The notes under the pieces: model-generated
The model's input: only the letters and a program-made list of their open reading frames with translations
What the model was told of the DNA's origin: nothing
Database searches by the model: none
Shown here: piece after piece, positions 1,984-42,542 of the stretch
Layout: the number at the start of each line of letters is the position of its first letter
How positions within the stretch are numbered: the first letter of the stretch is position 1
Translations under genes and position numbers: made by a program
Assembly (NCBI GenBank): GCA_977862235.1
Contig: OZ374565.1
Location: forward strand, 868,001-932,000
Direction: 5' to 3'
DNA length: 64,000 bases
Source: Dudresnaya verticillata
Lineage: Eukaryota

Positions 1984-4900
1984 CCCCATTGCTAGATGGT
2001 GATGATTTGGCTGTTCTCCAGAACCATAATTATTTTTCGAGAATAAATTGAACTCGTGATCCGGCGGCGACGCCCCTTGACCCCCGAAGGAGAATCGTCA
2101 CCGCTCCAACAAGAACTGCTTGATTTTGGAGAGTCTCGAAGCACAAACTGCTCACCTTCCGCGCCTTTCCCTTGTGCAAACACCGCCCACACACGAGCCC
2201 AACGTCAGCGTATAACCGCCCTCGCCGACCGTACAAAGAATTGGATCCAGGATGTCTGCACCGCTGTGGAAAGTGCGGCATCCTGAACCAAAACCTGCCA
2301 GCCCCAGCATCGTCTGAAGACGCAATGGCCCGCCACCAGAATGGCACAAATTAAGCGAGTGTCATCCGCGCCGCCAGATGTTGATCATGACATGCCGACT
2401 GAGCGTATTGCTCGATCTCTTTTTGGCGTTTTTGGCAGTGATTATGAAGCGGACGACCCGATTTGCGTCGAGGACCCAGGACAGTCTCCTGTGGGAGCAA
2501 ACTTTGATCGCGAGGGCATGGCAGTACTCAACACAACAACGACACCGATCCAGCGGGAAACCACGACAATCCACAAACAGTTCCGGGCGCGTGGAACGCT
2601 CCGATTTCGCAATGGAGAGACGATGTGCAGCAGGATCCACGGACGCCTCTCACGGGGACTACATTTGGTGCCCCGCAGCAGGGGGCCCAAATTCCTAACC
2701 CAACGACTGTTTGCCTACTTGATGCGGTAAACAACGACTCCTTGGACCCCTCTGATATAACATTTTCTTTATCGCAAGAAAGAAGGCAGCTTAATGACAG
2801 TGGAGATGACAGCATGTCGAGAAATTATTCTAATCCGGTAGGTGTTACAAGTGAGGAGCGTACATATCTACTTACGTTGTCCAATGGAATTCGAGAGGAG
2901 GTAGTGAACTCAGCATCGAGCGAGGCACTTTGTGAGGATATCTTTTCAATGCTGTTCACAGACTGTGACATTGAGCGGACATCTACACCGTGGGAAACAG
3001 GGGCACAGGTCGCCGGTGATGACGATGACGACTACGTTGAGGTAGAGGAGGAGATGGAAACGCGAACTGCTGCCCAACCAGCTAGACTGTCACAATGGTC
3101 GTACGATGATGCCTTTTGTACCGTTAGTGCTGCGTTTGATGATGTCGACAGTACGTTAGAGAAGCGATTTCTCAAAGAGGCGAATGGGATGCTGTCCCGC
3201 GTCCTGCAGGATGTTCAACAGCTCCGAGTGGAGCGAAAGTCGGCACAGAAGAACTCGGACGTCTCGAACGTGGTGTCAGATATCTTTGATGACTCATTTA
3301 CAAGACTTGAGTTCCTGCGCTGTTTTGTTACAGGTGCCCTGTTAGAAAAGCTGAAGCCTCACGTCAATCGCAGTCTAATCGCTCGGAAAAAAGATCCAAC
3401 GACCGGACAGGGGCTCTTGGCAATACTGGTCTTGCATATCCTGTGCGCCTCATACGATCAAAGTCCCACGATCGTATGCGATCCCGTTGAGAACAAAATT
3501 TTCTTCCAGATGGGCATTGAAGCCCAGCGCTATCATGAAGCCTGGTCTGCTCTCTCAGGGAGCGAAAAGAGAAGGGCGACAGTAATATATTCCAGTACGG
3601 AGTGGTGCAGAACCGCAGATTCAAATACGTCGCTAATCAACTTAGTTGAATGGGAGGTCGCCAACATTAACCGCCATCTGTACGTCCCAGGGGCCAGAAT
3701 CCTTTCTTTGGACGATGACCATTTGAGAATGGCATCTCGATCGGTTCTAACTCTAACACGTTTGCGACAGTACAACAATCCCAGAAAAGGCTTGGGTCCA
3801 GTCGGTAATGCACTTTGCAGTGCTCTCAATCCCGTCTTCCTGTCTTGTCACTTTACGCGATGCGGGGAGAAGCTTGTGCATACATGGGAGAGAGTGGTTT
3901 GTCTACGGCAGGGCGTTGCGCATGAAGGCGCGCTTAAACCAATGTCAGATGCTGTCTTCGCCGCCGATCGCGGCTACAACACCAAGGAGACCACATTGTT
4001 CATTTCTGAAAGGCTCGTTTCGACATTTCTTGGGACACATAAGCGCGACACATGGTACCCGTACGTGTTTGGGGACGGAGCTATTACAAAGAGGCATACA
4101 GGTCTGGTGATTTCCCAGAAGGGCTGCAGGGCAGTATATAACGCACGATGGGATCATGAAGGCTGTAAGAGACGTGGGCGGGAAGTAATTGCAAGTCTGT
4201 ATAGAGAAAGCCGCAGCGGACGTATTTCAGTATTGACTCATAACCATGACGTTATGTTTCCTCCCAGAAGATTCACAATTGTTCCACCCGAATGGTTCAG
4301 GAATCAGTTAAACGCAGTTGAGCTAGAAGAATTGTAGACAGTCTATATTGCTGTCCAAAAAGAAGGCCGGAGCCCCGGGGACGAGATAGCATCACATCAG
4401 CGAATGGTTAACGAGTTTCTTTCTCGTGTTAGGATGTTGACCTACTATCAGTCTGAGGACCCTCTTTGGTTTTTTTACGAGCTTTCCGTTTTACATCTCG
4501 CACATCGCACTCATTCCATTCAGCTTTCGCCTCGGATTTTGATGTGCACGTGCAGAGAATCTCGTTCCTGCTGAAGGGTAAGAGCCTGAGCACCACGGCT
4601 GCAGCACTTCCCGATGACGCCTCCGCGCTCTCAGATCAAATGAAGGTGAAGTGGGATGCTGTTATATATGTTATAGCTGTCGGGATGCGCAAAAGAGCGG
4701 CGTTAACTGTCTCGAATAGGATGCGAACTAAGGAGCATTTGCTGTCTTATACGGCGTCGCGACTTGGGCGTTTCACAATTAGTGAGCTAAAGTCTTTCCT
4801 GAACACGTTCTCAAGGCTACCTGTCGGACGAAAAACGAAAGCAGAATACGTCATGGCGGTTGTATTGCTTCAGGAAAACTTGAGGGCCACGGACAGTGCA

Positions 4901-6916
4901 GAGAGTAGTGAAGCTGCTGCTGGTGCACAAGAAAATAATGCTGAACAGCCCCATGGTATCGCTGCTTATACGACATTGCTCAAAACTTTGCAGAGTGCGT
5001 CATTGAGCGCCTGGGTCATGAAACCCTTTGTCTCAACCGAAGGCATGAAAGAAGGGAGCCGCAATGAAGAGAACGTTTTACATGCGCTACCCACGTTTTT
5101 CGAACATCGCGTAGGGATGCTACCAAAGGATTGGGGTACTGCAGAGTATTGTCTGGACCCCAACGGCAAGATATCAGTCAAGCTAATTCGGGCAGTGGGT
5201 CTGGTAGCCAGTCGTGGTACTGGGATTCTAGCGGACAGTGCAGAGGGATTGGCTGTTCTGACAAACACGGACTCACGCGTTATCGAGGAAACAATATTGG
5301 CGGCGATTGAAGTCAAAACAATGCCATCACTAAGACCTGCTTACAAAGCCGAGAAGATCGGTGAGGAGCATTCTGAAGCAGTTGTTGTGTCGGATGTTGG
5401 AATTTCAAAGGCTAGCGACGAGATGTTTAGAAAGCTGGTTCCAACTACTCCCTGCCATCTACAGTGCCTGCATCATGCCGCGGTTTACAACACCAGATGG
5501 GTTTTTTCGTGGTTGCGCGTGGCACAAACGGGGGAGCGGTGGAATAATTTACACATGCCTCATAGACTTTACGGAGACTCTACCAGAGTCGTGCAAGTAC
5601 TCACTTGACTGTATTTGGGGAGCAGGATTCCAATGGATTGGAAAGGGACACAAGGTGCATTCCGAGGGAATACGATGGCATATTGCAAAAACTCTCATGT
5701 CTCAGATTTATCCTCTTTTGCCTCGTACTACGGCTCGAGCCGAGCGGTGAATAGCCTCGTTCTGCAGACAGGCGAACCGCTTCCGCCTGCGGGTATGGTC
5801 CGCCTGACATCGCCTGTATGTTGGCACCACCTTAAAGGCGGTGTTGATATAATCTCGAGATACTTAAAGAATTTGGCTCGGTCTAACATGAGTGAAAGTC
5901 CAGTGGTCAGTATTGTGGCTTGTTTGTTGGTTCTTCAAGTGCATAATGCCGCCGTGCTTTATCGACTATATAAGGCAAGAAACTTGGGTCGTCTGCCAAG
6001 GACAGCGAGTGAAACCGGCGGAAAGGGCTATAAGTACAGCAGGCACAAAATGACGGAGTTCGAGACTTTCGGACGGTACGCTAGAGCGTTGTCGGAGGAA
6101 TGGTTACTTAAAAGTAACAGAGCCATGACACCTATGGGGAGCGGTCGAGTAAGGAAAACTACACCACTCCGCATGAAGCCATGGTTTTCCCGGGGTATTA
6201 TCGACAAGTATAACAGAGGGGTTGTCAAGAAACGGCGTCTTCGCGCACTTGTAAATCTCAGCACAAGCGTGCTATTGTGTGATGTGCACGTGGCGGCTAT
6301 ACAGCGATGTAGAAGGGGTGAAGCACAGCAAAGTTAAAGGAGCGAGGCAGGTGCGTTGGTGTGGAACCTGTAGGGACGCAATATGCAAAACGTGTTGGGA
6401 CCGTTGGAATAGCACTGCAGTGCTACAACGCGCTTGTCAGTCCGAAGCCGAGAAGCTGGCGTTTGACCGAGAAGTCAGGAACAAGAAGCGTCAAAAGAGA
6501 AACTGACAGAGGTAGGTACTCGGACGGGTGAAATAGTTGGAGTTCCCGAAGAGTACTGGACGATTGTCCAACAGGCGTCATCCGGTGTTTGCGGGATCCA
6601 TTTTAGTAGTACAGTGTGCCTTTAGTGAACAGTGCATGCACCATCTCTCCAAACAAAGTGAATGTCACACGAATTTCGTGAAGCTTTCATAAACTGTTGG
6701 ACCGATTTTTCCTTCGATTGGTCCACCTCAGAATTTTCAAACCTTTAGCGCTCCAAGTGTTTCTATGTGGCAGTTGAAAGGCACATGACTGGAGCCGTAT
6801 AACTCGCCCGGTTTGAATGAGGCCACCTGTTAATGCATCATATGTAACTGAGCGAAGCAATACAAATAAGACCCTTTCGGTCCTATCTTTTAACATCACG
6901 AAAACGGCCACGTGGG
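1984..6916 (+). mobile_element. Divergent piggyBac-like DNA transposon (~4.9 kb)
   Basis: Boundaries are fixed by the empty site in the sister LTR (agcgt-CTAT-agcaca). The insert starts CCC, ends GGG and is flanked by CAAT (1980-1983) / CTAT (6917-6920), a 4-bp duplication with one mismatch. It encodes a DDD transposase. Confidence 0.82.
2341..6506 (+). pseudogene. piggyBac-like DDD transposase with internal YqaJ/lambda-exonuclease-like domain, SAP motif and C-terminal Cys-rich domain (one stop, several frameshifts)
   Basis: Stitched from ORFs 2625-4337, 4466-5608, 5361-5750, 5615-6337 and 6279-6506. Transposase motifs: LSLDDD (D at 3711), AADRGY (D at 3966), WHHLKGGVD (D at 5846). Nuclease motifs: LTYYQSEDPLWF/LRAFRFTS, MKEGSRNE, ADSAEG, IEVK, LQCLHH. 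SAP-like FTISELKSFL..RLPVGRKTKAEYV. C-terminal CVMC...CGTCRDAICKTCW. Start codon uncertain (2341 or 2625). Confidence 0.8.
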
Positions 6917-7541: not shown

Positions 7542-9525
7542 ATGGCGGACAAGGGTCACGGCAAGCGAACTGAGTCCCACGAAGAGCACGTCAATGCTAC
7601 TCCTCGTCGCCTCGAGGGTGAGCTCGCTGCTGCCGCGGAACGCGTGGCTGCGGCGCCTATGCAGGATGTTGCGGTGCCTCCGAAGGCTTCGCGTCTTTCA
7701 TCGAATGTCGCTGGTCTTTCGGTTGACTACGGTCAATACATGCCACGGACTCTCGCGATTCCGCACGTCGTGAACATCGGGGTTTCGGGGCCTCCGGGTG
7801 CGGCTGACCTCGGTAGTCCGTACGTAAGTTTGGGCGGATCGAATCCGCAATTCGTAAATTGTGGTTGGCAACCGAGTGCTTCGTTGGGTCCTCCGAGATT
7901 CGGAAAAAGGGTTGAGAGTGCTCCGAGGCTTCCGGCTGCGCAGTTGTACTTCGCGTGGTATGGGTTGGCGGTCTCCGGAGGTACTCACGAAGAGGTCGTT
8001 GCTTACGATGGCCGTGTTTGTCCGGATCTCGGTCGCTTTCGTGCGCTCTGCGAGGGTCACGATTATAATGGAGTTGGTGTCTTTCACGTATTGTGGCCCC
8101 GTGGCCCCGTGTATCCGACTCCGATGGGCCTTCCGTGTGACGTCTCCTACGTGGCCACGGTCGACGAGGTTGCTTACGTAGATGCGTGTGCTCGTGTGCT
8201 CCTGGTACCGTGTTCGTGTATCTCCGTGGATTATCCTGTTGTCGCAGTGGCCCGTTTTCGCGTCTTCCCGGAGTCCGAGTGCGCCACGGGGAACGTGTGG
8301 CGCCACGTAGATTCGATATCACACATCCTTCGTGTTCACATCGGTCCCGGAGACCGGGATCTGTTTCGCGGAGTGGGCACGATGCCAGACCGAGTGGGTA
8401 CGAATGCGCGTTTCTACGACCGAGTGCCCCTGAGCATATTTAAGAGTTCGTATTGGCTCGACAGTTTCGGTATTCGCGCCCCGCGGGCTTGGTCGTTCTA
8501 CCTCCGAGGGTGATTCGGTATTTCTGCCTCATCGTAGATACGTATCCGGAGCCAGAGAGGAAGTGCTTCGAACGTTTCCGTGACTCTGAGTATCGCTTCG
8601 AGCTGGGCCACGCATTGATATCCGTTTGCGCTAGTCGAAGCCATTCTCCGAAGATGGCGGTTATCCGGATCTTCCGCTCCGAGGCTCGGATCGTACGACG
8701 TTGTTTTCGAAGATGCTGGCGATTTCCATCGGGGCAGCCGATCGGAGGGAGCTCCAGTCGACTCGGCGCGATTTCCCGACGGGACAGTGGTCCCAAGTGG
8801 TCGTGGGATCCGGAGCCGGGTTCAATTGGAGTCACAACCGACCCTCACGAGGGGGACGCGGTCCGCGAGTCGATCCGTTTCCGCATCTGAGTGCCGTGGT
8901 TCGTGCCATCGGAGGGGATTTTGGTCCGTTGCCACGTGTTCCGCGTTTCGTAGCTCCGACTTCTTCGCCGTCAATGACTCTGCGGTCAACGCTTGGCACC
9001 GGGGCCGTTACATTGGTGCCCAGCGCTTCGCGTTCCTAGGTCGCGAGTCTCGAGGTGCTCTGCCCCACGAATATTCGTACTCTCGACTCCGTGAGTGATG
9101 CGTGTTGCGAAGCGGGCATCTCCCCCGATGGGACTCTTCGGCAGCTGATAGACGACATCGGGGGAAGCTTCCTTCGAGCGGTTACGGAGGTGAGGCGCTT
9201 TCGTAGGCAGCTTTGTGATCGGGATGCGGAGAGAGCGGACTTTCGTCATCGTATTCGGGACCTCGAGTTGAGCGGTAAGCGTCGGAGCGAAGGTTATGGT
9301 TATCCGAGTTACGACGCTTCACGTTACGGGTCTGGCTCCAGAGGCCCTTCGGGCTTCGGACCCAGCGGTGGCGATGGCTACGATGGTCACCGCGGACAAT
9401 CGCAGACATCGGATCCGAACGCCCCGAACTTGCTTCGAGTGACTCGTGACAAAAACGGAAGCGATCCTCGTGATAACCCCCTTACGACTCCGCGAATCGG
9501 TATGATCGCTCGTAGTTGTACGTAG
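7542..9525 (+). pseudogene. Antisense accessory ORF of Gypsy-A (frameshifted; unknown function)
   Basis: Consecutive ORFs 7542-8513, 8453-8890 and 9055-9525 lie between integrase and 3' LTR, opposite to gag-pol. They share motifs with the 955-aa antisense ORF of Gypsy-B. Confidence 0.65.
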
Positions 9526-17820: not shown

Positions 17821-17838
17821 TTCTAGGTCGGGAGACCA
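17821..17838 (-). other. Primer-binding site of Gypsy-A (probably tRNA-Tyr)
   Basis: Minus strand TGGTCTCCCGACCTAGAA, 1 nt from the 5' LTR and identical to the Gypsy-B PBS. Confidence 0.85.
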
Positions 17839-27721: not shown

Positions 27722-28823
27722 ATGCGGATCCGTGACGCTACCATTTCCAAGCACCGCGACCGCTCTACGGAGTCCATTCTGCTTGTGGCACGATTCCGCA
27801 GCACGGATCTGAGCAACGCCATGACCTGCTTCTTCCTGCGGGACGTGCTCTACGCCGAGGGAGAGCAGACGCTCAACCACGAGAGGCACCTGCGCATTAG
27901 CGCGATGCGCTTTGACCTTGACGCCATCGACGATATGGTCTGCCTGCAGCGCTTTCGCTTCCGCAAAAGCGAAATCTACCGTATCGTTCAGAAGATGGAG
28001 TGGCCTGCAGAGCGAAATGTCACTACCCGCCGCCGCTACCGCACAACTGCTGGGTTTTCTTTCTGTGTCCTGGCTCGCCGTCTTGGCACCATCTGCCGTT
28101 GGTGCGATCTGGAACTGGAGTTTGGAAGGCTGGCTGCTGCGCTGTCTGAGATATTCTACGAGGCTCTGGAGTTCATGTTCGACAAGTTTGGTGCGCTGGT
28201 TACCACGTTCAGGTCGTCCTTTCTGCAAGAGCGTGCGGAGATGTAAGGTGACGCTATTCATAATGCGGGTGCGGCTTTGGACTCATGCGTCGGGTTCATA
28301 GACGGAACCAGTCTCTACATCGCCCGTCCGTCGGGGCTTTCGCAGCGTGCCACATAAAACGGGCACAAGTGCCGAAACTGTACTGCCTGAAGATGCAGGC
28401 CGTGTGCACGCCGGATGGGTTCATCTTCCATATGTTCGGTCCGGAGGAGGGGCGTCGTCACGACATGACGCTGTTCCGCCACTCGGCCATCGAACACGAC
28501 CTCTCGACCTCCCTGCTCATCGACGGACGCCAGTTCTACATCTACGGCGATCCCACATACGCGTTGCGGTCGTATTTTCAGGTAGGATTCAAGGCGGCCC
28601 CGCTTTCCGAGGACCAGAAGGCATTCAACAAGAGCATGTCTCTAGTGCGGGTGTCGGTGCAATGGGCATTCAAGGACTTGAAGAAGTATTTCACGCACGT
28701 CGACGCGACGCGCAAGATGGTGCTGCCGAGGGTTCCCGTGTCGAAATCGTACTTCGTTTCCGCTGCTCTCTGGAACTGTCGAGCCTGTATGTACGGCTCG
28801 CAAAGCGCGCGATTCTTCAAGTG
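27722..28823 (+). pseudogene. PIF/Harbinger transposase, interrupted near its C-terminus by Gypsy-B (last codons at 40721-40765)
   Basis: CLQRFRFRK, CVGFIDGT, GPEEGRRHD, IYGDPTY, RVSVQWAF (catalytic E replaced by Q). In-frame TAA at 28244 plus a frameshift. FFK|CPAPSFAAYIATL* is restored across the TSD. Confidence 0.92.
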
Positions 28824-29498
28824 TGTGGTGAAGCGGCCGTTGCGGAGTGCGGACGACGGTTGAACCGACCCGCGCCCGGCGCACTGGTGAGCTGGCGCCA
28901 AAAGCCGAAGCGGAGTGCAGTGACACAGTAGCACTGTATGCCCTGCTGGAGTCTGCGCGCACCACCAATAGGAGTCGAGTAGTTGATTTATTTGTAATTA
29001 GGTAATTATAATCATGCTGTACAGTACGTAGTGTCAGCCGGCCAATAAGAATGCCGAGCATGTCCGCAACGGTGACCGGGACCAGTAGGGCCGGACCCAC
29101 CTGGGGGACCAGACCCATTGGGGTCTGGCCCACACGGACCGGACCGCGGGGCGTATCTCCCAGTATATTAATGGGTGGCCACCGCGAGTCCTACAGTAAA
29201 CGGGTACGCAACCCTGGGCAAAGTGACTTACCCTAAGCCTTACCCTCATACTCCTTTACGGTTTCCCCTCGCCAGCCCCGTGCACGGATTCCTCCTACCT
29301 CCGTCCCGGTGTAGCTGCCCTGGCACTGTACCGTCCCCCTTGTCTGTTGCGTCCCTTTACTCCTTACAGGTGTTGCCGCTCGAGGTACTCCCTTCGGTCT
29401 ACGAACTAAGCTCTACCACCCCGGTGCCGTGTGAGATCACTCCTTATTGGGATTGTCTGATCAGCTCTCCTTACAGGTGTGCCTTTCACTTCACCACA
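28824..29498 (+). repeat. 5' LTR of Gypsy-B
   Basis: TGTGGTGAAG...CTTCACCACA 10-bp inverted termini; direct repeat of 40046-40720. Confidence 0.97.
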
Positions 29499-29504
29499 TC
29501 TTTT

Positions 29505-29522
29505 TGGTCTCCCGACCTAGAA
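29505..29522 (+). other. Primer-binding site of Gypsy-B (probably tRNA-Tyr)
   Basis: TGGTCTCCCGACCTAGAA, 6 nt after the LTR. Confidence 0.88.
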
Positions 29523-29663: not shown

Positions 29664-32396
29664 ATGGACCCTACCGCATCGGATCAAGGTGAGGTGCCGT
29701 CGACCGCGAGATCACGCCGCGGTGACGACGACACCGTCCCGGAGGTACCCTCTACTGCGAGAGCACGCCGCAGTGAGCCCACCGAACCGGAGGTAGCTTC
29801 AGCTACGAGAACACGCCGTGGCGATGCTGCCGACCTGAACCCCGGTATGGAGAACCCCGAAGAACTCCTTAAAGGTGTAGCCAGTAAGCTCTCTAGATCC
29901 CGACCTGGTTCCGACACTTCCCGCAAGGGTGTATCCAAGCCAGGTGACTCCAATCGTGTCCATTGGATACTTTCGGAAGTCATCCCACGGGTGTTGGAGC
30001 ATCTCCGTATAGAGGTGCAACCCAACATGGTCAAGGAGGTTGAGACCACGCTCGCCGACACCGTTCCGGTTATTGTTAGCTCCTACCTGGAGAAACACCT
30101 TCCGGAGTTGGTACAGACGCTCATCCGTCAGGAGCGTCAGGCGTCGGAAATCGAGCAGATGCTCATCCCCGGACAACCCCTACCGGGACCCAAGGAGCAG
30201 CCCTTTTCTGGACCTACACCGATACGGAATAACTTCCCGGTCAAGGGAGAAACGACGTATATGCCAGAAATCCCCACTCAGGTGTTTCCGCCCGATCCGG
30301 TAAGGACAGCGGCAGCCCCTGGGTTACCTACCCAAACTCAATACACCGAATTAGATCCAACACACCAACCCCAACCGAATCGGAGTACGGTCCCTGGACC
30401 CGCAGAAGTGCCTGCGGGGGAACGTATCACCGTGCCGGTGGCTTCGCGTAGAGGCAGTGAGCACTCCGATGGTGACTCCAAGAGAAATCAAGACCGGAGT
30501 GGTAGAGACAGTGCTGACAGAAAGGCCAAGGACTCCCACTCCGATAAGGAACATGACCGTTCGCAACGGAGCAAACGCGCTTCGCGACGGGACAAAGAAC
30601 ACTCCGGTACGGAATCTGATGATAGCCAACACCGCAATAGGAAGAAGAATAAGCGCAAGTCGCGCCATAGGCGACGAAAAGGGCATGACTCCTCCCATTC
30701 CTCTGGCTCTGATACGAGCTACTCCGATACGGATAGGGACGAGCGGCGTCGGGCCAGAAAACGCGACGCCAAACACCGAGAGGTCGACAGGCCACTCCCA
30801 AAGGTGATCCGGCCCCTGAACGACAGGTTCGTGAAGGCGCTGGATTTCCGAACATACCGTCTGGAGAAAAGGAGTTCTTACTACAGCTCCAGCTTGTCCC
30901 AGAATATGGGACGTACCCGCAAAAAGCTGGAGGTGCAAATGAAGTCCCACTCCTTTAACGGTACAGACCCCATCACGGTCCTTGGATTTCTCGCGAAGTT
31001 CAAGGATGCGTGTAACATCAACTCCATTTCGGAAGGAACCGCACTGTGGTGTTTCCAGTTTTTCTTAAGTGGACAGGCTGAAGCTTTGCTTCAAGCCCGT
31101 CTCGCTGGTGGCACCATGGCGGTCGACGAGGAGCAAGCAGAGATGCTTCGCACCTATACCGAAGTGGTGAACTTTTTGCTAAGGACTTATGCTACCGATG
31201 AGGTGATTGCCGAAGTGTATTCGGACGTAACGTCGTTTCGACAAACGTCGGCCTTAACGGAAGAGCAATTCTCTAACCAACTTTGGACTAAGGCACTCCG
31301 ATGCGGTACAGTATTCTCCGACAGGTCCCTCAAGTCGCTGTTTGTGGAAGGACTCCTACCGGGAACGTGTCAGCAGATGCGCAATTATCTGGCAACACCC
31401 CCCCACATGGATTACCAAGCCATCACCCGCTACGCTAAAGGGCTCGGAGAATCCCATCGGGCAACCAGACGCAAACGAGCACTTCTCGTTTCAAGACGAG
31501 CGAATGTAGCGAGTATTAGACGTCGGATCGACCCGACGTGAAAACGGCCACTACAATTGTATGGATGTGACAGGTCGAGCACGTGGTCGCGATCGCTCCC
31601 ACGTCGGCATATCGTCAGCGACGCAATTTCGTGCAGCGGCTGGGCGTCGGTGCCCTTCGCCGTCAACGGCCGCTGCCCCAGGCTTGGTTAGCTGGGGGCT
31701 TGCCGCTCCCCAACTCCCACACCCGCTGAATCGGAGGAGCACGTTCTCGCTCTGGAAGGTGGCGCGGGTCGTAGCGCCGGCACCTCGTCGGGGGTTACGT
31801 TTACTACAGCGTACTCTTCCCCACCGAGTAGTGTCTACCCTACTCCGCCTCGGACTCCCAACCTTCGCCCACCAGCGCCACGGATGCCACCACCCCGGCA
31901 ACCCCGCTACGGACCGGCTGATAGCCGCTACGGCCCCGCCACACACCGTCAGGGAACCACCGGGCAGCATCCCAGCCATATTGGACACCCCCACGGCAAC
32001 ATGCCTCCCCGTCAAGGGCAGGGCAAACACCGTATTGGAAAACAATCCCCTGCTGCAGAGCATACGGATCACACCTCACCGGATGTCCGACGCCTCTATG
32101 GAAGCGGCTACTGTCGCTTGTGCCTTTCCCCGGACCATGTCATTTGTCCGTATCTGAGCGACACCGAAAAGGGTCCCCTGATGGAAGAGCGCGAGCGCAA
32201 CTATCAAGCGCTCCTCCTCAAGCGGCAGGCCTTTGCAAACTCCAATACGGGAAATCGTCCGCCGGGCAACTACCAGCAACGCCCAGCACGGGTGCTGACT
32301 GTCGATGGTGGTGCGGTTGGCGAGTCCCCAGCTGAAATGGAGGAGGAGGCACTCATGGCGCACCCCGACTCGGAAAACGTCGCAGGAGACGTGTAA
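29664..32396 (+). pseudogene. gag: Gypsy-B gag (625-aa ORF plus frameshifted C-terminal part)
   Basis: ORF 29664-31541 with capsid-like FNGTDPITVLGFLAKF. ORF 31884-32396 with Zn-knuckle-like CRLCLSPDHVIC. Confidence 0.88.
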
Positions 32397-35300
32397 GGGC
32401 ATCCCCGTCTCCTCAACGCGACGTGGTACGCCCACCAATACGGGCTTTGCCGGACTGTCAGTCCGCCACCATTACGGAGTACCCCCTTGATTTTGTTCCA
32501 GAAATCCCCCTTGAATTTCCACCACCCGGTGATTCTGTCTGTGTTCTACAGCGGCAGAATTACAAAATCCAGATTACCGTGGGAAGGAGTAATGACCTCA
32601 TGTTACCTCTCATCACCGTATCGGATTCTGGTGCTGGGCCAAATCTCATTAACGCCAGACGGCTTCCACGCCACTGGTTGTCCTTGATTCGCCCCGCTGT
32701 CAGTCCACCTCTACGGGATGCGTCCAATAGGTCGATACGCCGGCTTGGTGTCATTCAACGTTTTGTCCGTATCGGAGAATTGCGTACTCGAGTCCACTTC
32801 CTGGTGGTCGCGAACCTCGCTGCTCCGTGTATTCTGGGAACCAGTTTCATTGATCGCCATGTCAAGGCGATCCTCCCACCGGCACGGAAAGTTGTTTTTC
32901 ATCACCACTCTCCGGTCTCACTAATGGGACAAACCAGACACTCCAAAACGGTGGCTGCTTCTACTCTTCAGGGCCCCCTGTTTCATCCGCTTCGGTATCG
33001 CAAAAGCTCCGACTAGCAAAATCCCTTATTATCCCCCCTATGACCCAATCCCTTGCATTGGTCACCACTCCTACCGGTGGTTTGTGTTTTCTTCAAAACC
33101 ATCCCAAACCCATCCAAAAGCACCTCACCCTTATGGCTAACGCAGTTATGGATATAATCCCTAACAAACCCTTTAAGGTGTGGCTGACTAATTTTTCCCC
33201 CAAACCGGTGCGTTTACCCAAGTCTACCGTCCTGGGCCTCGCTACTGCTGCTCCCGCTGCCATACTTACCGTTAACGGTGTACCTCCATTTAAGGAGGGG
33301 GGAGGACATATTAATTCCTTTCCTACTCCTCCTAATGAAAGCAGCAAGGCTACACCCCAAGATGGATTGAAAAGAAACACCGTATCGGAATCAACTACAA
33401 CCCCTGACACCGATTGGAAAGATAACATCCATATTGGTGCCAAGGATGAAAAACTCCGCGCTAAGGTGGTTACACTCCTCGAGGAGTTCAGCACTATGTG
33501 GAACGGCGAGTTAGGAAATATAACTGCCGCGAAACACCGTATTGAATTAATGCCTGGTACCAAACCGGTGTATCAAGCACCATATCGGGCAGGACATAAA
33601 CAGCGCGAGCTGGAGAAGGCAGAAGTAGATCGTATGTTGTCCGCTAAGGTGATCGAGCCATCCGCTTCGGAGTGGGCCAGCCCTGTGGTCTTTGTTCCTA
33701 AAAAGGACGGCTCCATGCGGGTTTGTGTCGATTACAGGCGTCTTAACGCTGTCACCGTTCGGGATTCATACCCTTTACCCCGGATGGATGAATGTATCGA
33801 CTCCCTTGGAGAATCTACAGTATTCACCACGCTGGATTGTAATAGTGGCTACTGGCAAGTAGAGATCCCCGAGGAGGAGCGTGACAAAACTACCTTCACC
33901 AGTCATTATGGATTATACCGCTTCCGGAGAATGCCTTTTGGGCTCAAAAACGCACCGGCTACTTTCCAAACGGGCAGTTGACAGCATCCTATCTACGGTG
34001 AAATGGCAATTTGCCTTAGTCTACCTGGATGATGTGATTGTATATTCTAACACCGTCACGGAGCACTTCGAACACCTTAAGGAGGTCCTCACGCTACTCC
34101 GTTCCGCAGGTGTAACTCTGAAATTATCGAAGTGTGCCTTCTTCGACACTTCCGTACAGTATCTGGGCCACATAGTGCGTCCGGGCCAATTGGAAGTGGA
34201 ACGGAAGAATATTCTCGCCGTTAAGGAGGCTAAGCCACCTACAAACCAAACGGAGTTGCGCTCTTTTCTAGGGTTATGTAACGTCTATCGACGCTTCGTT
34301 CCTAATTTCGCACGCATTGCTTCGCCACTCAATAAGAAAACCGGCAAGGGTCTGGTATTCGAGTTTGGAACTCTCACCGAAACGGAGTTTAACGCCTTTG
34401 AGGAGTTAAAGAGACACCTAATCTCCCCTCCAATATTGGCTTTACCCCGTCATGGTTTCAAGTATACGTTGGATACCGACGCTTGTGATTACCAAGTTGG
34501 GTGTGTCCTTCTCCAGGAGCAACCTAGTGGAGATAATCTACCAGTGGGTTACTGGAGCCGAAGTCTAACCGATGCGGAGAAGAATTACACAAACACGGAA
34601 AAGGAGTGCCTTGCTGTCGTTTGGAGTATGCTAACGCTACGCCCCTACCTTTACGGTGAAAAGTTTATACTCCGTACGGATCACGACGCATTAAGCTGGA
34701 TATTGAGTCTAGCCGATGCGTCTGGACGCTTAGCAAGATGGCGCCTACGCCTATCGGAATTTGAGTTCGAGGTACAATACCGCACTGGAATCAAGCACCA
34801 ACTCGCAGACGGAATGTCGAGACTCCGAAAAGGTGGTGTTGACAAAGCCGAGTTGGATGAAGAAGTACCTTGCTTCGTTATGGAATCGACTCCTAATGGT
34901 GTAGTGCAACATGGTGTGCGACTAACCAATTGGAAACAGACCCAGCACCCTGATGCCGCAAGCAGCCTTGTCCTAGGCGTTGAAAGTGGAGACACCGAAA
35001 CGGATAATACGCCTGAAAAGGATACAGTACCATCCACTCCGCTCCGGCAAACGGTCATCCAACAAGAGGACATGCGCAATGAGACCCTTACCCGTGAGGA
35101 GTTCATATCCGCGCAAGCAACAGATAATTTCTGCAAGCTTAAAGCCGAATCGGTGGGATCCCCTGGATCACAATTTGACTACGACCGACATGGGTTTCTT
35201 GTGCGCAAGTCTGCCCTCGACGGCGCACTCCAAAAGGTGGTACCGCAACAGATGCGCGGCAGGGTCCTGTATCTTGCCCACTACACCTTGATGTCGGGAC

Positions 35301-36779
35301 ACCCTGGTGGAATTAAGATGTACTACACCTTACGGAGAGACTACTATTGGCCACATATGGCTAACGATGTATTCGAGACCGTTCGGAGTTGCCGCTCATG
35401 TGTCAAAACCAGAGGCTCGCGGTTTAAGCATCAGAAGTTCATGAAGCTATTTCCCGCGAGTGGCCCACTGGAGTTTGTTGCTACGGACATACTAGGCCCG
35501 CTGCCGAAAACCAAACGGGGATACGTCTTTTTACTGGTCATCACCGATCGGTTTTCTAAACTAACACGGTGCATTCCGTTACGGACGATTACAGCCGTCG
35601 TGGTGGCGAATGCATTTTTAGACCATTGGGTGTATGCTGTATGCGTATGGCGAACCTAAATTCGTACTCACCGACAATGGAAGACAGTTTACAGCGAAGT
35701 TCTTCGACGCTGTCTGTGCCCTACTCGGAGTGCGGCATTTGCTGACCGCTGCCTACCACCCGCAAACCAACGGGCAAGCCGAACGGTTTAACAAAACCAT
35801 AGCGCAGCGCCTCCGACACTACGTCGAGGATCACCACACCGATTGGGATTTATACCTACAGCCGTTGACCTACTCCTATAATATGCAGGTACACCGGATT
35901 ACGGATACTACTCCCTTTGACCTGGTGTTAACTCGACACCCATCGGATATTATTGTGCGTGGCACCCCTGTGGAGTTGGAAGAAACCGTTACGGAGGGGC
36001 GTATGACACCCGTACTCCAAAAACGGGGAACCATGCGGCGTTTGCGTTATGCCCTACAGAAGGCGCAGACCAAACAGACTACAGCCCAGTTGAAGTCCAA
36101 GGCCCTATTCGACCGTAAGGTACGCTTCCGACTGGTGGTTTGCGGTGGCGATCAAGTCTACGTAGATCGCCCGCCGCGTAATCTACGACCCACCGAGCGA
36201 CAGGAACGCGACCGATTGGGTCAAGGCCCTGACCACATCGGTGAATTTGCGGAGCAAATGAAAAAGCTCCTCCCAAGGTCGACGGGCCCCTACGAGGTGC
36301 ACACCGCAACGGATACTGTAGTCACTATCAAGAAGGATGGCGTCCTGATTCCCATCAGCATCGATCGCATCACTAAGGTACCAATTGGAGTTCCCGTGCA
36401 ACCGGCGCCGCTATTGGCCCCGCCGGTTACGCCACACGCCGACATGGACGGTACAGTATCCTAGCAGGCGGGAGGCACCACAGTAGTACCCCAAACACCA
36501 GGTGGTATTACTGTAACGCCTCAAACGCCAGGCGGTACTTCTGCCCCCGTGCCGGAAACAATTGATGCCGACACGGAGTATGTCATCGAGCAGATAGTGG
36601 GACACCGCGAAGAACCCACGGGCATGACCTACAAGGTGCGTTGGTACGGCTACCCACCAGACCAAGACACGTATGAACCCGCTGAGGAGTTGCCGCAAAA
36701 CTTCATACACCGCTATTGGAATAGAAAGCGTACGGCAGCAGCTGCAGCTCGACGTCGCAGAGCTCCCGCACGTCGATAG
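32379..36779 (+). pseudogene. pol: Gypsy-B pol (protease, RT, RNase H, integrase, chromodomain); few frameshifts and one in-frame TAG
   Basis: Protease: SDSGAGPNLI. RT: LDCNSGYWQV, MPFGLKNAPATFQ, VYLDD. RNase H: DTDACDYQVG. Integrase: HYTLMSGHPG..CRSC, DILGP, TDNG, QTNGQAER. Chromodomain: EYVIEQIVGH..YKVRWYGY..TYEP. Confidence 0.96.
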
Positions 36780-36814: not shown

Positions 36815-36973
36815 AAAAATCGGGCATGACCCGTGGACTCCGTGTTCACAGAACCCTTGCTCAAGGGGCTCTACTCCCTATTGGTGACTTGGCGTTGATA
36901 CAAAATGGGCATGACCTCTGGACTCTGGAACCACAGAACCCTTGCCCAAGAGGCTCTACTCCATATTGGTGAA
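36815..36973. repeat. Imperfect 85-bp tandem duplication between pol and the antisense ORF
   Basis: gggcatgacc..tggactc..cacagaacccttgc.caag.ggctctactcc.tattggtga starts at 36822 and at 36907. Confidence 0.85.
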
Positions 36974-37162
36974 TCGCCGGCGAGCGAGCAACCACTTCTG
37001 GTGTGAGATGGTCGTCAACCGGCCGCAAAGCCTTGTGTGGGGTAGGGTAGCCTCTCCACTTCAAGACTCACTCCACAGTGGTGTTATTCCACTTCCCCTC
37101 CGCCAGCGAAAGGGGGGCTCACACAAATCACAAGATTTTATTGACAAGTGGCATTTCTACGC

Positions 37163-40030
37163 TTACACCGCATTTCGGGGACGCTTTGCTGGCGGCGCCA
37201 GGTCGGCCTCCGTATCTTCCTCTTTGGCCGTACTCTCCTCCAAGTCGGGAATATCCTGACCATATACCCTTGCGGTAATCATGGTGAGTCTCCTGCCGGT
37301 GTCTGCCATGCGTCGACACAAAGCGCGAATGGTACGCCTTAGGCGCGCCAGGCGCCCGACCCACAGCACGGCGGTGTTAATGGCTTCGTTCGCCGACGCT
37401 GGAAGGGGCATGCCCGCGTCTCTACACCACTCGCGGAGTCGCTGCAGGGCATCCCCATCTACGCGCAACTCCGCTTCGGTCCAACTCGGCATCTCCCTCG
37501 GGGCATTCTCCTCTTGTTTCACCACCACGGGGTCGATATGACGGGGTGGCCCTCCACCTGGACCCGCAGCGGCCACAAACGTCACGGAGTCACTCGACGC
37601 GGGCGACACCGGCTTGACAACTTCACCCCGCTTCGGTGTAGTGGTCTTCACTGCTACTCCAGGCCGTGTGGTCGCGCGTTCCTCCACTTGGTCGGTCCCC
37701 ACTGGTGTAGCGTCCTCTTCCATCTCGGAGTCGTCGTGCTCCCCGACGGGACCCAACTTAGCCGCGGTTGCCGCCACTACCGTGGGTTTCCCTACCGCTA
37801 CGGTATTCGCCGCCTTGTCCAACTTGGTGTTCGCGTTGACCCCCGGCGAGACAGCCGGTTTCGAAGCCCCGATTGGTGTAGATGCTGCGGCCACCCCCGA
37901 CAAACCCCCCTGCGCCTCGATCTCCGCTCCTACAGGAGGAGACTCCGTTACGGTCTTCTTGGGTGACGAAGTCGTGCGGTCGCCCCACACCTTTATGGCT
38001 TCTCCACCAGGGGATTCTCTTGGCACAAGGACCCTTGGGTCCCCGCGCCCCTTCTCAATCTCGTCAACCCCCACCGGTGTAATCTCGTCTGCAGGCGGAC
38101 TGTCGAGGCGTCCCTGTGGATACGGCACACCGGATTGAGTACCCCACTCACATGATGGCGGAGCCCTCGATGGCCCCTCCGTCATGGGGTAGAACCTGGA
38201 GCGGGCGCGTATCGCGTGCCAGTTTGACATCTTCTCGTGGATCAACCACGCCGGCTCGGGGTCTTCTTCCGATAGGAAATACGCCATACCACACCCGGAG
38301 TTTAGCGGTGGCACCGACAACACGCGGTCGTCATTCCAATGATAACCGATGAACCCTGGCGTTCGCTCCCAATTGGTGTCTGCGTGAACCGTGAAGAGGC
38401 GTTCCACACGCGCCAAGGGGTATTCGGTCCCCTCAACCAACCGGTCTACTCCAACTTGGTGTATAAGGGTAACCACCGGCCCTGGTAGCTTGAATATGCG
38501 CCCGCACTCGCCACCTTCCGGATCCGTTCTGCTCCGCGGGTACGCCCTCCAGTCGGTCATCTTGGTATTGGCTCTTAAACCCCTGTAGGTGACCTGTAGC
38601 CAGGAGAAGAGGACTAACATGGCCCATTCCGCTTGGAGTATCCGACCGAACACCGTCATCAGCGGATGGTCGATTGACTTCTCTCCGCCTGGGTGTGCAG
38701 CTTTCCAGTCGCGATGCTGAATGAACCGGTTGGAGAAGTACGCCACCACCGTCGGCGTTGGCACTGACAACCAACGGGTGACTTCATACTCAGCCCACCA
38801 ATCCGGAGCGGTGCAGTACAAGCGACGGTGCGCTCCCGGCGGCACCTGGAAGAATTCGTTGGTGTTCCAAGTGTGGAGTATCGCCCTTCCGAGACGGCGT
38901 CCATCTCTACTCCGCAACCGGAGTCGATGCTCTTTCGCTGCGTCGTCGGCCCACCGTCGCGGATTCGCAAACCAGTGAACCCCTTGGTCATACGGCTTCT
39001 CGTAGCACAGGAACTCGACACCAACCGGATGCTCTCTCAGTCGATGAGCCATGGCCAACAAGCGGCACACCTTATCGGGATAGCCTTCTTCTTCCTGACA
39101 CCTCAGCCACACGATGTCACACCCGGTTGGAGTTCGCACTCTGCAGTTTGAGTGAATCCACCTGGCTCGCCACATCTCCTCACGCCGATTCGGGAACGGC
39201 TTGTTGTTGATCAACCCACCGGCGTCTGGAACAGCACTGTAGCGACGCCCCTCGAGGGTACCACCATAGTGGGGCACGAACACCGATAGGGGCATGGGGA
39301 GACGCACCATATCGCGCTCCTCCTCGGTACGCTGGCGCCTCCCGGTGCGGTGATCGTATTCCCGGCCAGGCCAAGTTCCCTCATCGGTGTAACCTGTCAA
39401 GTCCACGCGCCCATGGTAATTCCCTTGCATCCCCGGCGCGTACGGCATTGAACCAGACAGCGTGCCGCCAACACCCATGTGGAGTGGGGGTGAGGTCACG
39501 CCACCTCCCACCTGACCAACCTGGAGACCCTGCGCGTACGCCTCATATCGCCCATGCGGAGTTGCACGACGATATCTCCCAAGCTCCATCTCGGCGTTGC
39601 CTTTGGAAGGACCGGGTCGTTGTGCCCCCGGCCCAACCTGTCGATCCGGAAGCGGAGTCGGCACCTGTCGAGCCTCGCCGTCATCGCGCCGTCGCGGCAC
39701 CCTCGGGCTGCCCGCGCGTGCTGGCAGCGTCGGCGTTGTGCCCGCTTCCGCCGCAACTCCCGCTATGGTGTCCGCGATTCGGCCGCCTTCTTCTTCTTCT
39801 GCCTCCGGCGCCGGAGCCGCCCCCACCGACGATGTACGCCGTGTCGGTTGGAAGGGGCTCCGTGCGCGGTCGGTGTTCCCGCCCGCCATTGCTAGCGGTA
39901 CACCGGTTTGGACCTGTCCGTTGGTTGACCTGCCTGAAGTGGAGTGTACCGATGAGGCTCTCTCCGTTGTTGGGTACACCTGAGTGGAGTCGTAGAAGAC
40001 GTGCTGTGGCGCACGAGGACGTGTCGCCAT
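37163..40030 (-). CDS. 955-aa antisense accessory protein of Gypsy-B, unknown function
   Basis: Uninterrupted 2.9-kb ORF whose ATG abuts the PPT. Disordered ends, a Trp-rich globular core and a C-terminal helical/coiled-coil segment ending in NLS-like PPAKRPR. Confidence 0.85.
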   Translation of the reverse strand: MATRPRAPQHVFYDSTQVYPTTERASSVHSTSGRSTNGQVQTGVPLAMAGGNTDRARSPFQPTRRTSSVGAAPAPEAEEEEGGRIADTIAGVAAEAGTTPTLPARAGSPRVPRRRDDGEARQVPTPLPDRQVGPGAQRPGPSKGNAEMELGRYRRATPHGRYEAYAQGLQVGQVGGGVTSPPLHMGVGGTLSGSMPYAPGMQGNYHGRVDLTGYTDEGTWPGREYDHRTGRRQRTEEERDMVRLPMPLSVFVPHYGGTLEGRRYSAVPDAGGLINNKPFPNRREEMWRARWIHSNCRVRTPTGCDIVWLRCQEEEGYPDKVCRLLAMAHRLREHPVGVEFLCYEKPYDQGVHWFANPRRWADDAAKEHRLRLRSRDGRRLGRAILHTWNTNEFFQVPPGAHRRLYCTAPDWWAEYEVTRWLSVPTPTVVAYFSNRFIQHRDWKAAHPGGEKSIDHPLMTVFGRILQAEWAMLVLFSWLQVTYRGLRANTKMTDWRAYPRSRTDPEGGECGRIFKLPGPVVTLIHQVGVDRLVEGTEYPLARVERLFTVHADTNWERTPGFIGYHWNDDRVLSVPPLNSGCGMAYFLSEEDPEPAWLIHEKMSNWHAIRARSRFYPMTEGPSRAPPSCEWGTQSGVPYPQGRLDSPPADEITPVGVDEIEKGRGDPRVLVPRESPGGEAIKVWGDRTTSSPKKTVTESPPVGAEIEAQGGLSGVAAASTPIGASKPAVSPGVNANTKLDKAANTVAVGKPTVVAATAAKLGPVGEHDDSEMEEDATPVGTDQVEERATTRPGVAVKTTTPKRGEVVKPVSPASSDSVTFVAAAGPGGGPPRHIDPVVVKQEENAPREMPSWTEAELRVDGDALQRLREWCRDAGMPLPASANEAINTAVLWVGRLARLRRTIRALCRRMADTGRRLTMITARVYGQDIPDLEESTAKEEDTEADLAPPAKRPRNAV

Positions 40031-40043
40031 TTAAGGAGGGGGG
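40031..40043 (+). other. Polypurine tract of Gypsy-B
   Basis: TTAAGGAGGGGGG, 2 nt before the 3' LTR. Confidence 0.92.
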
Positions 40044-40045
40044 TC

Positions 40046-40720
40046 TGTGGTGAAGCGGCCGTTTCGGAGTGCGGACGACGGTTGAACCGACCCGCGCCCG
40101 GCGCACTGGTGAGCTGGCGCCAAAAGCCGAAGCGGAGTGCAGTGACACAGTAGCACTGTATGCCCTGCTGGAGTCTGCGCGCACCACCAATAGGAGTCGA
40201 GTAGTTGATTTATTTGTAATTAGGTAATTATAATCATGCTGTACAGTACGTAGTGTCAGCCGGCCAATAAGAATGTCGAGCATGTCCGCAACGGTGACCG
40301 GGACCAGTAGGGCCGGACTCACCTGGTGGACCAGACCCATTGGGGTCTGGCCCACAGGGACCGGACCCCGGGGCGTATCTCCCAGTATATTAATGGGTGG
40401 CCACCGCGAGTCCTACAGTAAACGGGTACGCAACCCTGGGCAAAGTGACTTACCCTAAGCCTTACCCTCATACTCCTTTACGGTTTCCCCTCGCCAGCCC
40501 CGTGCACGGATTCCTCCTACCTCCGTCCCGGTGTAGCTGCCCTGGCACTGTACCGTCCCCCTTGTCTGTTGCGTCCCTTTACTCCTTACAGGTGTTGCCG
40601 CTCGAGGTACTCCCTTCGGTCTACGAACTAAGCTCTACCACCCCGGTGCCGTGTGAGATCACTCCTTATTGGGATTGCCTGATCAGCTCTCCTTACAGGT
40701 GTGCCTTTCACTTCACCACA
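40046..40720 (+). repeat. 3' LTR of Gypsy-B
   Basis: Direct repeat of 28824-29498. Confidence 0.97.
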
Positions 40721-40903
40721 AAGTGCCCCGCACCGTCGTTTGCAGCGTACATTGCGACGCTCTGAAACAGCGTTTCGGATCTGTTTGCGATCCCGCAAGT
40801 GGTGTCAGATTGCAGAACGCCCGCCAAAAACGATCTGTCGCCCGCTCGCGCGGGCGGACGAGGAGCGATTGAATGATCTAAAGTAAACTTTACTTCCGTG
40901 TTT

Positions 40904-41932
40904 CTACTCTTTCTTGCCCTTGTCCGCAAACTTGGAGGGGAAGTGGCGCATGCTGGCCTGAATGCGTAGCTGCATTCGGCGTTCTTCGGCGTGGTCTCGG
41001 TCGCGTTTGGCGTCATCAGCTGCTCGCTGCTCCTCGAGAGCGACGCGGCGGAGGTTGGGAGCTTGAATAGCCTCTGCACTCGTCGTTTCGCGATCGGGAC
41101 GGAGGTCTTCAATGGCTAGACGTCGGTCGTCGCGTGCCGTGGCTGCCAGTAACGCCTCACTGCGAGCGCGCTCGCCACTTTCAAGTGCGCTTCTAGCGGC
41201 TCCTAGATCCCTGCCGCGTTCTGTTACACCGACGTGACGCTTCTTAGACAGAGTTCCCACTGGGCTGTCGTCGTTCGCCTCTGGTGTTGCGTCCCGCGCC
41301 GCATGTCGGTTAAGCGCCATTTCCCGAACGGCAGCACCAGCGCCCAACAGCAGCTCTGTCTTGTCCTCCTTCTCCTTAAGGGATTCTTCTTGTTCCAACT
41401 TATGCGCATCCATCTCCTCCCTGATATCGCTGCACAACCGTTTTGCCACACGTTCGAACGCCCCGAAGTCCTCCCTACCACCTGAGGCAGCAGCCCGGGT
41501 GCTGTCCTGCGACTTCCATTTGTCCATCAGCAGCTTAAAGCGGTCGCGACAGTGCTTGCCGTCTGTCTTCCAGGGCAACGCGAGGTGCGTGTTGGCATTC
41601 AGTTTGACAGCCACCTCCGAAAACTTTGTGAGCAACTCTCATTTCCACGGCACGTGTGCACCGCAGGCGATGATCTCCTGCATGAGGGGGACGTTGTGCT
41701 CGTCCCTGCAGATGCGACGCGGCTTCGGAGCAGCCCGCGTCGCGGTGTTGGTCGAGGGTGCAGGTGGAGCACTGCTCGGCGTAGCAGGCGACGGACCTGC
41801 CGGCGGTGACGGCGTGTCCAGCTCGAGGATGTCGCTCTGCGGCGTTGGTGGGGGAGCGGTAGTGGGATCGGCGTCCTCATCCACTGCGATGGCGTCGGAA
41901 GGCGCCTGTTGCTGGCAAGATGATGTCAGCAT
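40904..41932 (-). pseudogene. Harbinger Myb/SANT-like partner protein (single in-frame TGA at 41639-41641)
   Basis: Convergent with the transposase. RICRDEHNVPLMQEIIACGAHVPWK*ELLTKFSEVAVKLN...DGKHCRDRFKLLMDKWK...ASG, then a coiled coil. Confidence 0.82.
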
Positions 41933-42542
41933 GGTAGAAGGCGTCGGAGGGCGGTTTGGATGCGCGTGTCCACGAGGAGGTGGGTGGGCTATCTGGAGAG
42001 CACAGAATGGGGTTCGCGCCAATTTTGGTTGCGAACTTCGCTTCGCTGTTGGTCCGGGAATGCCCATTTTTCTGTGTGGTGACTTCGGTATTTTCTGCCT
42101 ACTGTAAATATATGCCGAATAAATCACCGAAGTGGCACCGAAATCGGTATGCCAAAACCCACGATAGTCGTCATTGTACAACCTGTAGTGTCCGCCCCCG
42201 CGCTTGCGATCACTCCGGGGGCACTTGTCTTTTGTTTGTTGGTTCGTCGTGACAGTCAGAATCGTGGAACGGGTAGCTGTTTTTTAGATAAATACCGTAC
42301 ACTTCCTTGCCGAAGTTGAAATACAATTATGTTTAGAGGCCTCGCGGATACCTCTGCTACGAACTTCTCCGATACTGCTTAGTGGGTGGCATAAAATTAC
42401 CGCATTACTTATCTGAAAGAAGAACGCATCATTCCCGCAGGCGCAGGCCTCCGAAAACAGCCCGGCGGGAAAACGGTTGCGAGTCGGCTAACCCAACCTA
42501 CCCGCCCCTCCCCCGCCCCGCAGCCGACTCCCAACCGGCAGT

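Follow-up and report, generated by a model that had tools for sequence, protein, structure and literature searches.

A 955-codon gene, P0001, runs antisense to gag-pol in Gypsy-B, a retrotransposon of Dudresnaya verticillata, and we are nearly certain that the element bears it as a real gene subject to selection. Its product belongs to what appears to be an undescribed protein family; the arrangement itself is already known. Our preferred reading, which we consider plausible but short of probable, is that P0001 is an accessory gene of a chromodomain-bearing Ty3/Gypsy clade, likely a red-algal one, that it is likely driven by the 3′ LTR, and that it encodes a predicted nuclear protein likely to act in trans against host silencing. 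Unless a locus is named, coordinates are those of the window, the whole stretch of 64,000 nucleotides that was analysed.

Gypsy-B is a complete and young Ty3/Gypsy element. Its 675-bp LTRs (28824..29498, TG...CA, and 40046..40720, both plus strand) differ by 7 mismatches and are flanked by identical AAGTG target-site duplications (28819..28823 on the left and 40721..40725 on the right, plus strand). A primer-binding-site-like motif (29505..29517, plus strand), a polypurine tract (40033..40043, plus strand), and the domain order protease-RT-RNase H-integrase complete the features by which it was assigned to Ty3/Gypsy; the same primer-binding motif occurs in the minus-strand element Gypsy-A (at 17838) and in the related loci L013 and L014. 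The gag-like region (29664..32396, plus strand) matched nothing in Pfam and is broken, with a 625-codon ORF that stops at 31541 and a later piece in another frame; in relatives the gag position is filled by a single ORF of 700-790 codons. The pol region (32489..36779, plus strand; protease, RT, RNase H, integrase, and chromodomain) contains three frameshifts (~32960-33000, 33969, and 35636) and one in-frame stop (TAG at 36462). This stop separates the integrase from the chromodomain at its end (36579..36725, plus strand; PF00385, E 5.8e-13).

Gypsy-B interrupts a Harbinger-type DDE_Tnp_4 gene within its final codons (27722-28823 and 40726-42067), and short minus-strand ORFs at 40904-42067 may be the Myb-like partner of that gene. 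Long broken ORFs of another transposase-like element are present at 2508-6337 (plus strand), between the internal region and the far LTR of Gypsy-A. The 3′ half of the Gypsy-B LTR (40400-40720 and 29180-29498) holds two pyrimidine-rich stretches ending in CAG, resembling intron 3′ ends in a sense leader.

P0001 occupies the interval between the chromodomain and the 3′ LTR as a stop-free minus-strand ORF (37163..40030, read from 40030), as the initial annotation had described; an antisense frame lying between pol and the 3′ LTR is what defines an aORF-3R. When this stretch was base-shuffled 300 times, the longest open frame had a mean length of 188 codons and never exceeded 355; the composition-based probability of the observed length was ~3e-14. 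The ATG (40030-40028), immediately preceded by an in-frame TAA, had been said to touch the polypurine tract, which is correct to within 2 nucleotides. A Trp-rich core was also reported, and 15 Trp were counted in its 334 residues. Nor is the protein env-like, again in agreement with the earlier description: it is antisense rather than sense, its N-terminus is polar, and its highest 19-residue hydropathy, which falls within the globular core, is only 1.45, so that P0001 has no clear membrane anchor. The intact frame had further been contrasted with the broken gag and pol. The lesions are as described, but their use as evidence of function does not hold: gag-pol carries 5-6 lesions over 7.1 kb, and at that density a frame of 2.87 kb would stay intact by chance with P 0.09-0.13; intactness in this single copy is therefore no evidence of selection.

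Relatives of P0001 were detected only by a full phmmer scan of 1.84 billion representative sequences, queried with residues 235-955; word-index homologue searches with P0001 returned none. The full scan found 100 clusters at E ≤ 0.001 (28 at E ≤ 1e-10), each less than 50% identical to the others, with matches centred on residues 244-577. The best match (E 1.8e-31, 35% identity) was a Gracilariopsis chorda hypothetical protein that is itself multicopy, with four near-identical sequences under five accessions. Among 20 representatives looked up, only this cluster carried an organism name, which makes a red-algal host likely; a profile of the core now lets such multicopy G. chorda ‘hypothetical proteins’ be checked as transposon genes. 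P0001 had no match in Pfam, and scans of the family against Pfam, NCBIfam, and PHROGs gave only coiled-coil matches, in 1-4 members. Neither TRP28 (PF04195) nor the plant mobile domain (PMD) was matched by any of 101 family members, and PF04195 was also absent from P0001 and from the ORFs of L006 and L014 in an HMM scan, below whose reach a remote homology may lie. The family profile matched no sequence in the PDB, and neither viral contigs nor prokaryote genomes yielded anything when scanned for the family's motifs. The viral collection did include a 2387-codon Gypsy polyprotein (L001, 948-8111) that is unrelated to the P0001 family and whose C-terminal part looks envelope-like.

Long members of the family share a layout: a disordered N-terminal arm, a globular core of 330 residues, a low-complexity linker, a short helical motif, often a coiled coil, and a basic tail. 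In P0001 the core spans residues 244-577 (38300..39301, minus strand), is mostly alpha-helical in the model described below, and belongs to no catalogued family. The second, short conserved helical motif and a predicted coiled coil lie at residues ~853-925 (37256..37474, minus strand), where some relatives give coiled-coil or SMC-type matches. The C-terminal NLS-like motif PPAKRPR was found as claimed, at residues 946-952 (37175..37195, minus strand). Such basic motifs are enriched among family members: of 26 long members, 11 have K[KR]x[KR] within their final 40 residues and the other 15 lack it there, compared with 10 occurrences among 424 windows taken elsewhere in these proteins. Conservation reaches at least 75% in 31 alignment columns, and W287, H293, D305, E367, R369, E392, Y405, V423, P424, P426, and E468 are identical even among six divergent members. 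Across the family H293, D305, E367, E392, and E468 are 81-93% conserved, R369 likewise, and position 314 (E in P0001) is either E or D; there is no conserved set of Cys. Within clusters, amino-acid differences were lower in the core than in the rest of the protein in 8 of 11 pairs, equal in one and higher in two, weak support for a more constrained core.

AlphaFold2, given residues 235-600 and 97 aligned sequences, produced a confident and mostly helical model of the core (pLDDT 88.3, pTM 0.89); a single-sequence fold was useless (pLDDT 30). Foldseek found nothing at E ≤ 0.001 for the core model in the PDB or BFVD, the ESM Atlas held no usable match for P0001 or P0148, and among 48,161 chains compared with VIA-align the highest Z was 3.6; these results are no proof of a new fold. 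Net charge of the core is near neutral (median +3, range -14 to +9 in 53 members), so DNA binding by the core is not directly indicated.

The same gene recurs in related elements. A metagenome scan queried with a distant subfamily gave two loci, L002 and L003. In L002 a distant member lies tail-to-tail with a chromodomain. Across 75 residues this chromodomain matches the end of the Gypsy pol P0045 with 100% identity, and the antisense ORF overlaps the pol end; in L003 no pol was found within 757 downstream bases. A scan by pol alone, blind to the antisense gene, gave 78 loci, six of which belong to the Gypsy-B clade and reach the chromodomain. Complete genes were present in two of the six, antisense behind intact gag and pol and recognised by a profile built without either locus: L006 (1007 codons, E 1e-20) and L014 (853 codons, E 6e-18). 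L007 and L013 retain only the C-terminal end, the rest being cut by the contig edge, and were recognised by likeness to L006 and L014. The remaining two were uninformative, with no trace of the gene in 1.2 kb (L005) and 0.6 kb (L010) of 3′ flank. No match was found in the 66 other Gypsy loci (in L015-L081), a set that includes 20 with 3 kb or more of 3′ flank. The pol-to-3′ LTR antisense frame is thus conserved in full in L002, L006, and L014 and as tails in L007 and L013. Contigs of L004-L014 and of many of L015-L081, some of them complete Gypsy elements, sit inside prokaryote assemblies, ten of them in one Algimonas assembly, and look like eukaryotic contaminants.

A quickly built tree from 129 RT-RNase H rows, none of them a named reference element, put the gene carriers in three sub-branches of one 51-row clade (SH-aLRT 96) nested in a 69-row clade (99). 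Carrier elements of the three branches are only ~45-53% identical to Gypsy-B in RNase H-integrase, and the simplest reading is an old origin of the antisense gene within the carrier clade. Of the 100 clusters, only a few have a known genomic context. Two pairs of a pol and a family member come from contigs of equal size (P0003/P0155, 9545 bp; P0012/P0236, 6194 bp), which suggests that the members of each pair share a contig; as circumstantial evidence these pairs were not counted. Gypsy-A, which falls in the same clade as Gypsy-B, carries a broken antisense frame behind pol (7545-9525, plus strand) in a layout similar to that of P0001. Only one short motif of that frame matches the family (3-7 bits; HHalign probability 2%), which is below significance, and the frame was therefore not counted as a homologue. 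The Gypsy-B spacer that separates the ends of pol and of the antisense gene contains two 78-bp direct copies, 81% identical (36817-36979), and short repeats likewise occupy this spacer in L014.

Selection was estimated from one pair, L006 and L007, mostly over the C-terminal half of the gene. In the antisense frame, pS was 0.69-0.83, near saturation, and pN was 0.33-0.41; pN was 0.09 in pol and 0.15 in gag. The antisense frame is under purifying selection and evolves faster than pol. The initial annotation would have given up its proposal if the ORF proved unconserved or neutral among copies: by this one pair it is constrained, and it is conserved across 100 clusters, with the same antisense position in L002, L006, and L014.

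A start of the gene at or inside the LTR recurs. In L006 and L014 the frame continues uninterrupted through the polypurine tract into the LTR; its first ATG falls inside the LTR, and another follows ~40-45 nt inside the polypurine tract. In L014 (12623-12644) the first ATG falls in the terminal inverted repeat of the LTR and the frame codes through the polypurine tract. The ATG of L002 lies ~165 nt from the best polypurine tract candidate. The LTR edge in these comparisons was supported by terminal inverted repeat and primer-binding site in L014 and by the polypurine pattern alone in L006 and L002. In Gypsy-B no minus-strand ATG occurs between 40030 and 40237, and the first 190 bases of the 3′ LTR, likewise without one, end in an AT-rich patch (~40205-40240) that is a candidate antisense promoter. 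A start at or inside the LTR leaves little space for an internal promoter and therefore points to U3; its recurrence fits a predicted LTR-borne antisense promoter. At the other end, an AATAAA 20 nt past the Gypsy-B stop (37137..37142, minus strand), followed by a GT-rich run, is a likely poly(A) signal. The hexamer recurs 30 nt past the stop in L014, ~30 nt in L013, and 135 nt in L006, and is absent from this position in L007, L002, and L003; it thus occurs within 140 nt in four of seven elements, against a per-element chance of 0.02-0.05, and may not be the red-algal signal. Taken together, these signals make an antisense mRNA that starts in U3 and ends after AATAAA probable.

A dedicated nuclear accessory factor, for instance in anti-silencing or copy-number control, was the function first proposed. 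Its accessory, element-borne character is borne out by the conserved clusters, the recurring position, and purifying selection; its nuclear destination is so far a prediction, with the enrichment of the C-terminal basic motif in its favour, and import through the basic tail is very probable. Under the mechanism we propose, the 3′ LTR would drive an antisense mRNA ending before pol, the protein would enter the nucleus via its basic tail and perhaps self-associate through the coiled coil, and the core would keep its own element family transcribed despite host silencing. We put forward this anti-silencing or trans-activating role, akin to that of VANC, tentatively. It is argued from fast evolution, from likely separate expression, and from analogy with VANC and with the accessory genes of red-algal Plavaka transposons; the comparison is one of analogy because searches of Pfam and of solved and viral structures gave no link from the core to VANC, to PMD/MAIN, or to TRP28.

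Other readings of the same evidence deserve weight. The conserved H293, D305, E367, E392, and E468, along with R369 and the acidic position 314, could belong to a likely metal-dependent enzyme that acts for the element on nucleic acid or a chromatin protein, by modification or cleavage, and enzymes are encoded by accessory genes of other mobile elements, e.g. PAG2 and PAG3 of red-algal Plavaka (10.1101/2025.02.11.637652). Such an enzyme would be compatible with anti-silencing, but no enzyme family or fold was matched and the conserved Arg/Glu pairs could equally be buried salt bridges, so that we regard this as unlikely. Still more doubtful is its most specific version, in which an ancient, lineage-wide red-algal protein with a fold unseen in solved structures would act as a 3′ LTR-expressed enzyme whose His/Asp/Glu active site removes or blocks silencing and whose translation would, in some elements, pass directly across the polypurine tract. 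P0001 might instead help the replication cycle in the manner of retroviral accessory factors, by export of unspliced RNA, import of the pre-integration complex, or guidance of integration together with the chromodomain. A role of this kind has been proposed for plant antisense ORFs (PMC7264820), and it would suit the basic tail and coiled coil and the fact that L006 and L014 have kept the gene together with an intact gag and pol. We think it rather unlikely, however, since the gene evolves much faster than pol (pN 0.33-0.41 versus 0.09), more like a host-conflict protein, and, instead of relying on co-expression with gag-pol, likely has a promoter and a 3′ end to itself.

HTLV-1 HBZ, too, starts in the 3′ LTR (PMC7264820, PMC11963269), which raises the prospect of a self-limiting regulator, with the antisense RNA or the protein dampening the element as a form of copy-number control. 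Convergent transcription could yield double-stranded RNA, and the ORF of L002 runs into the pol end. Yet in Gypsy-B, L006, L007, and L014 a gap of 380-1670 nt separates the ORF's end from pol, and AATAAA usually follows shortly after the stop; an RNA effect needs no conserved fold of 330 residues; we judge such a regulator improbable. The idea of a captured host gene or neutral passenger confined to the Gypsy-B copy draws on the non-significant intactness of that copy and on the many relatives, most of the 100, whose context is not known. It is largely refuted, and we give it almost no credence: the gene lies antisense behind the chromodomain in other elements, in the same position and orientation across three branches as divergent as those described above, it is under purifying selection, and it matches no catalogued host family.

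The role of antisense extra genes in LTR retrotransposons is described as an open question (PMC7264820, PMC11963269). Antisense ORFs between pol and the 3′ LTR are known from the plant Retand lineage and the fungal element Boty (PMC7264820, PMC11963269, PMC6317226, 10.1101/2021.04.13.439636). Among titles and abstracts we found no red-algal Gypsy element described as carrying such a gene; the ORF may already be shown in the Chondrus genome paper, Repbase, or preprint supplements. The closest parallel is the Retand lineage (maize Grande gene23, rice RIRE2, and Silene Retand, with TRP28/PF04195), which resembles P0001 in position, orientation, and lineage-wide presence, and whose antisense ORFs likewise have coiled-coil (SMC-like) segments, a nuclear prediction, and no known function in the accounts available (PMC7264820, PMC11963269). 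Grande GENE23 is reported to be nuclear and transcribed antisense (PMC7264820). Retand elements differ in being non-chromoviruses, described from flowering plants only, with TRP28 in 97% of clusters (PMC7264820, PMC11963269); in the P0001 lineage, by contrast, a chromodomain is present (PF00385 at the end of Gypsy-B pol), none of 101 members has TRP28 or PMD, and the frame starts at or inside the LTR. Chromodomain Gypsy lineages are reported to exist outside the chromoviruses (PMC12477816). The brtn gene of Boty (BcGypsy1), from Botrytis and Sclerotinia, likewise lies on the antisense strand from pol and before the 3′ LTR, here in a non-plant Gypsy element, a likeness drawn by description (PMC7264820, 10.1101/2021.04.13.439636).

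Several systems beyond this arrangement offer functional parallels. With its antisense gene, 3′ LTR promoter, and nuclear product (PMC7264820, PMC11963269), HTLV-1 HBZ resembles P0001, for which promoter and localisation are predicted. The two differ in size and domain content, HBZ being a small retroviral bZIP protein. VANC of VANDAL and the MAIN/MAIL1 plant mobile domain share with P0001 the character of a transposon-borne accessory with a globular domain, a disordered arm, and a coiled coil (10.1101/2024.04.02.587720), and VANC anti-silencing proteins are predicted to dimerise via the coiled coil (10.1101/2024.04.02.587720). VANDAL elements are DNA transposons of flowering plants, however, and the P0001 family showed neither a Pfam match to PF10536-type/PMD domains nor a structure match to them in the PDB, BFVD, or VIA-align chains. 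Nearer in host, red-algal DNA transposons carry chromatin-type accessory genes (10.1101/2025.02.11.637652). Plavaka PAG1-3 are, like P0001, mobile-element accessory genes of red seaweeds, and PAG1 is described as having no known domain (10.1101/2025.02.11.637652); these are DNA-transposon genes, and PAG1 is set beside the P0001 family by description only. In most red seaweeds, genome growth is reported to be driven by LTR elements and transposon silencing to be barely studied (10.1101/2025.02.11.637652). Plant antisense ORFs are mostly very diverse (PMC6317226), whereas the P0001 family keeps one alignable domain of 330 residues across its whole clade. Because this domain is alignable, confidently folded, and marked by few invariant residues, point mutations and structural studies could test its role.
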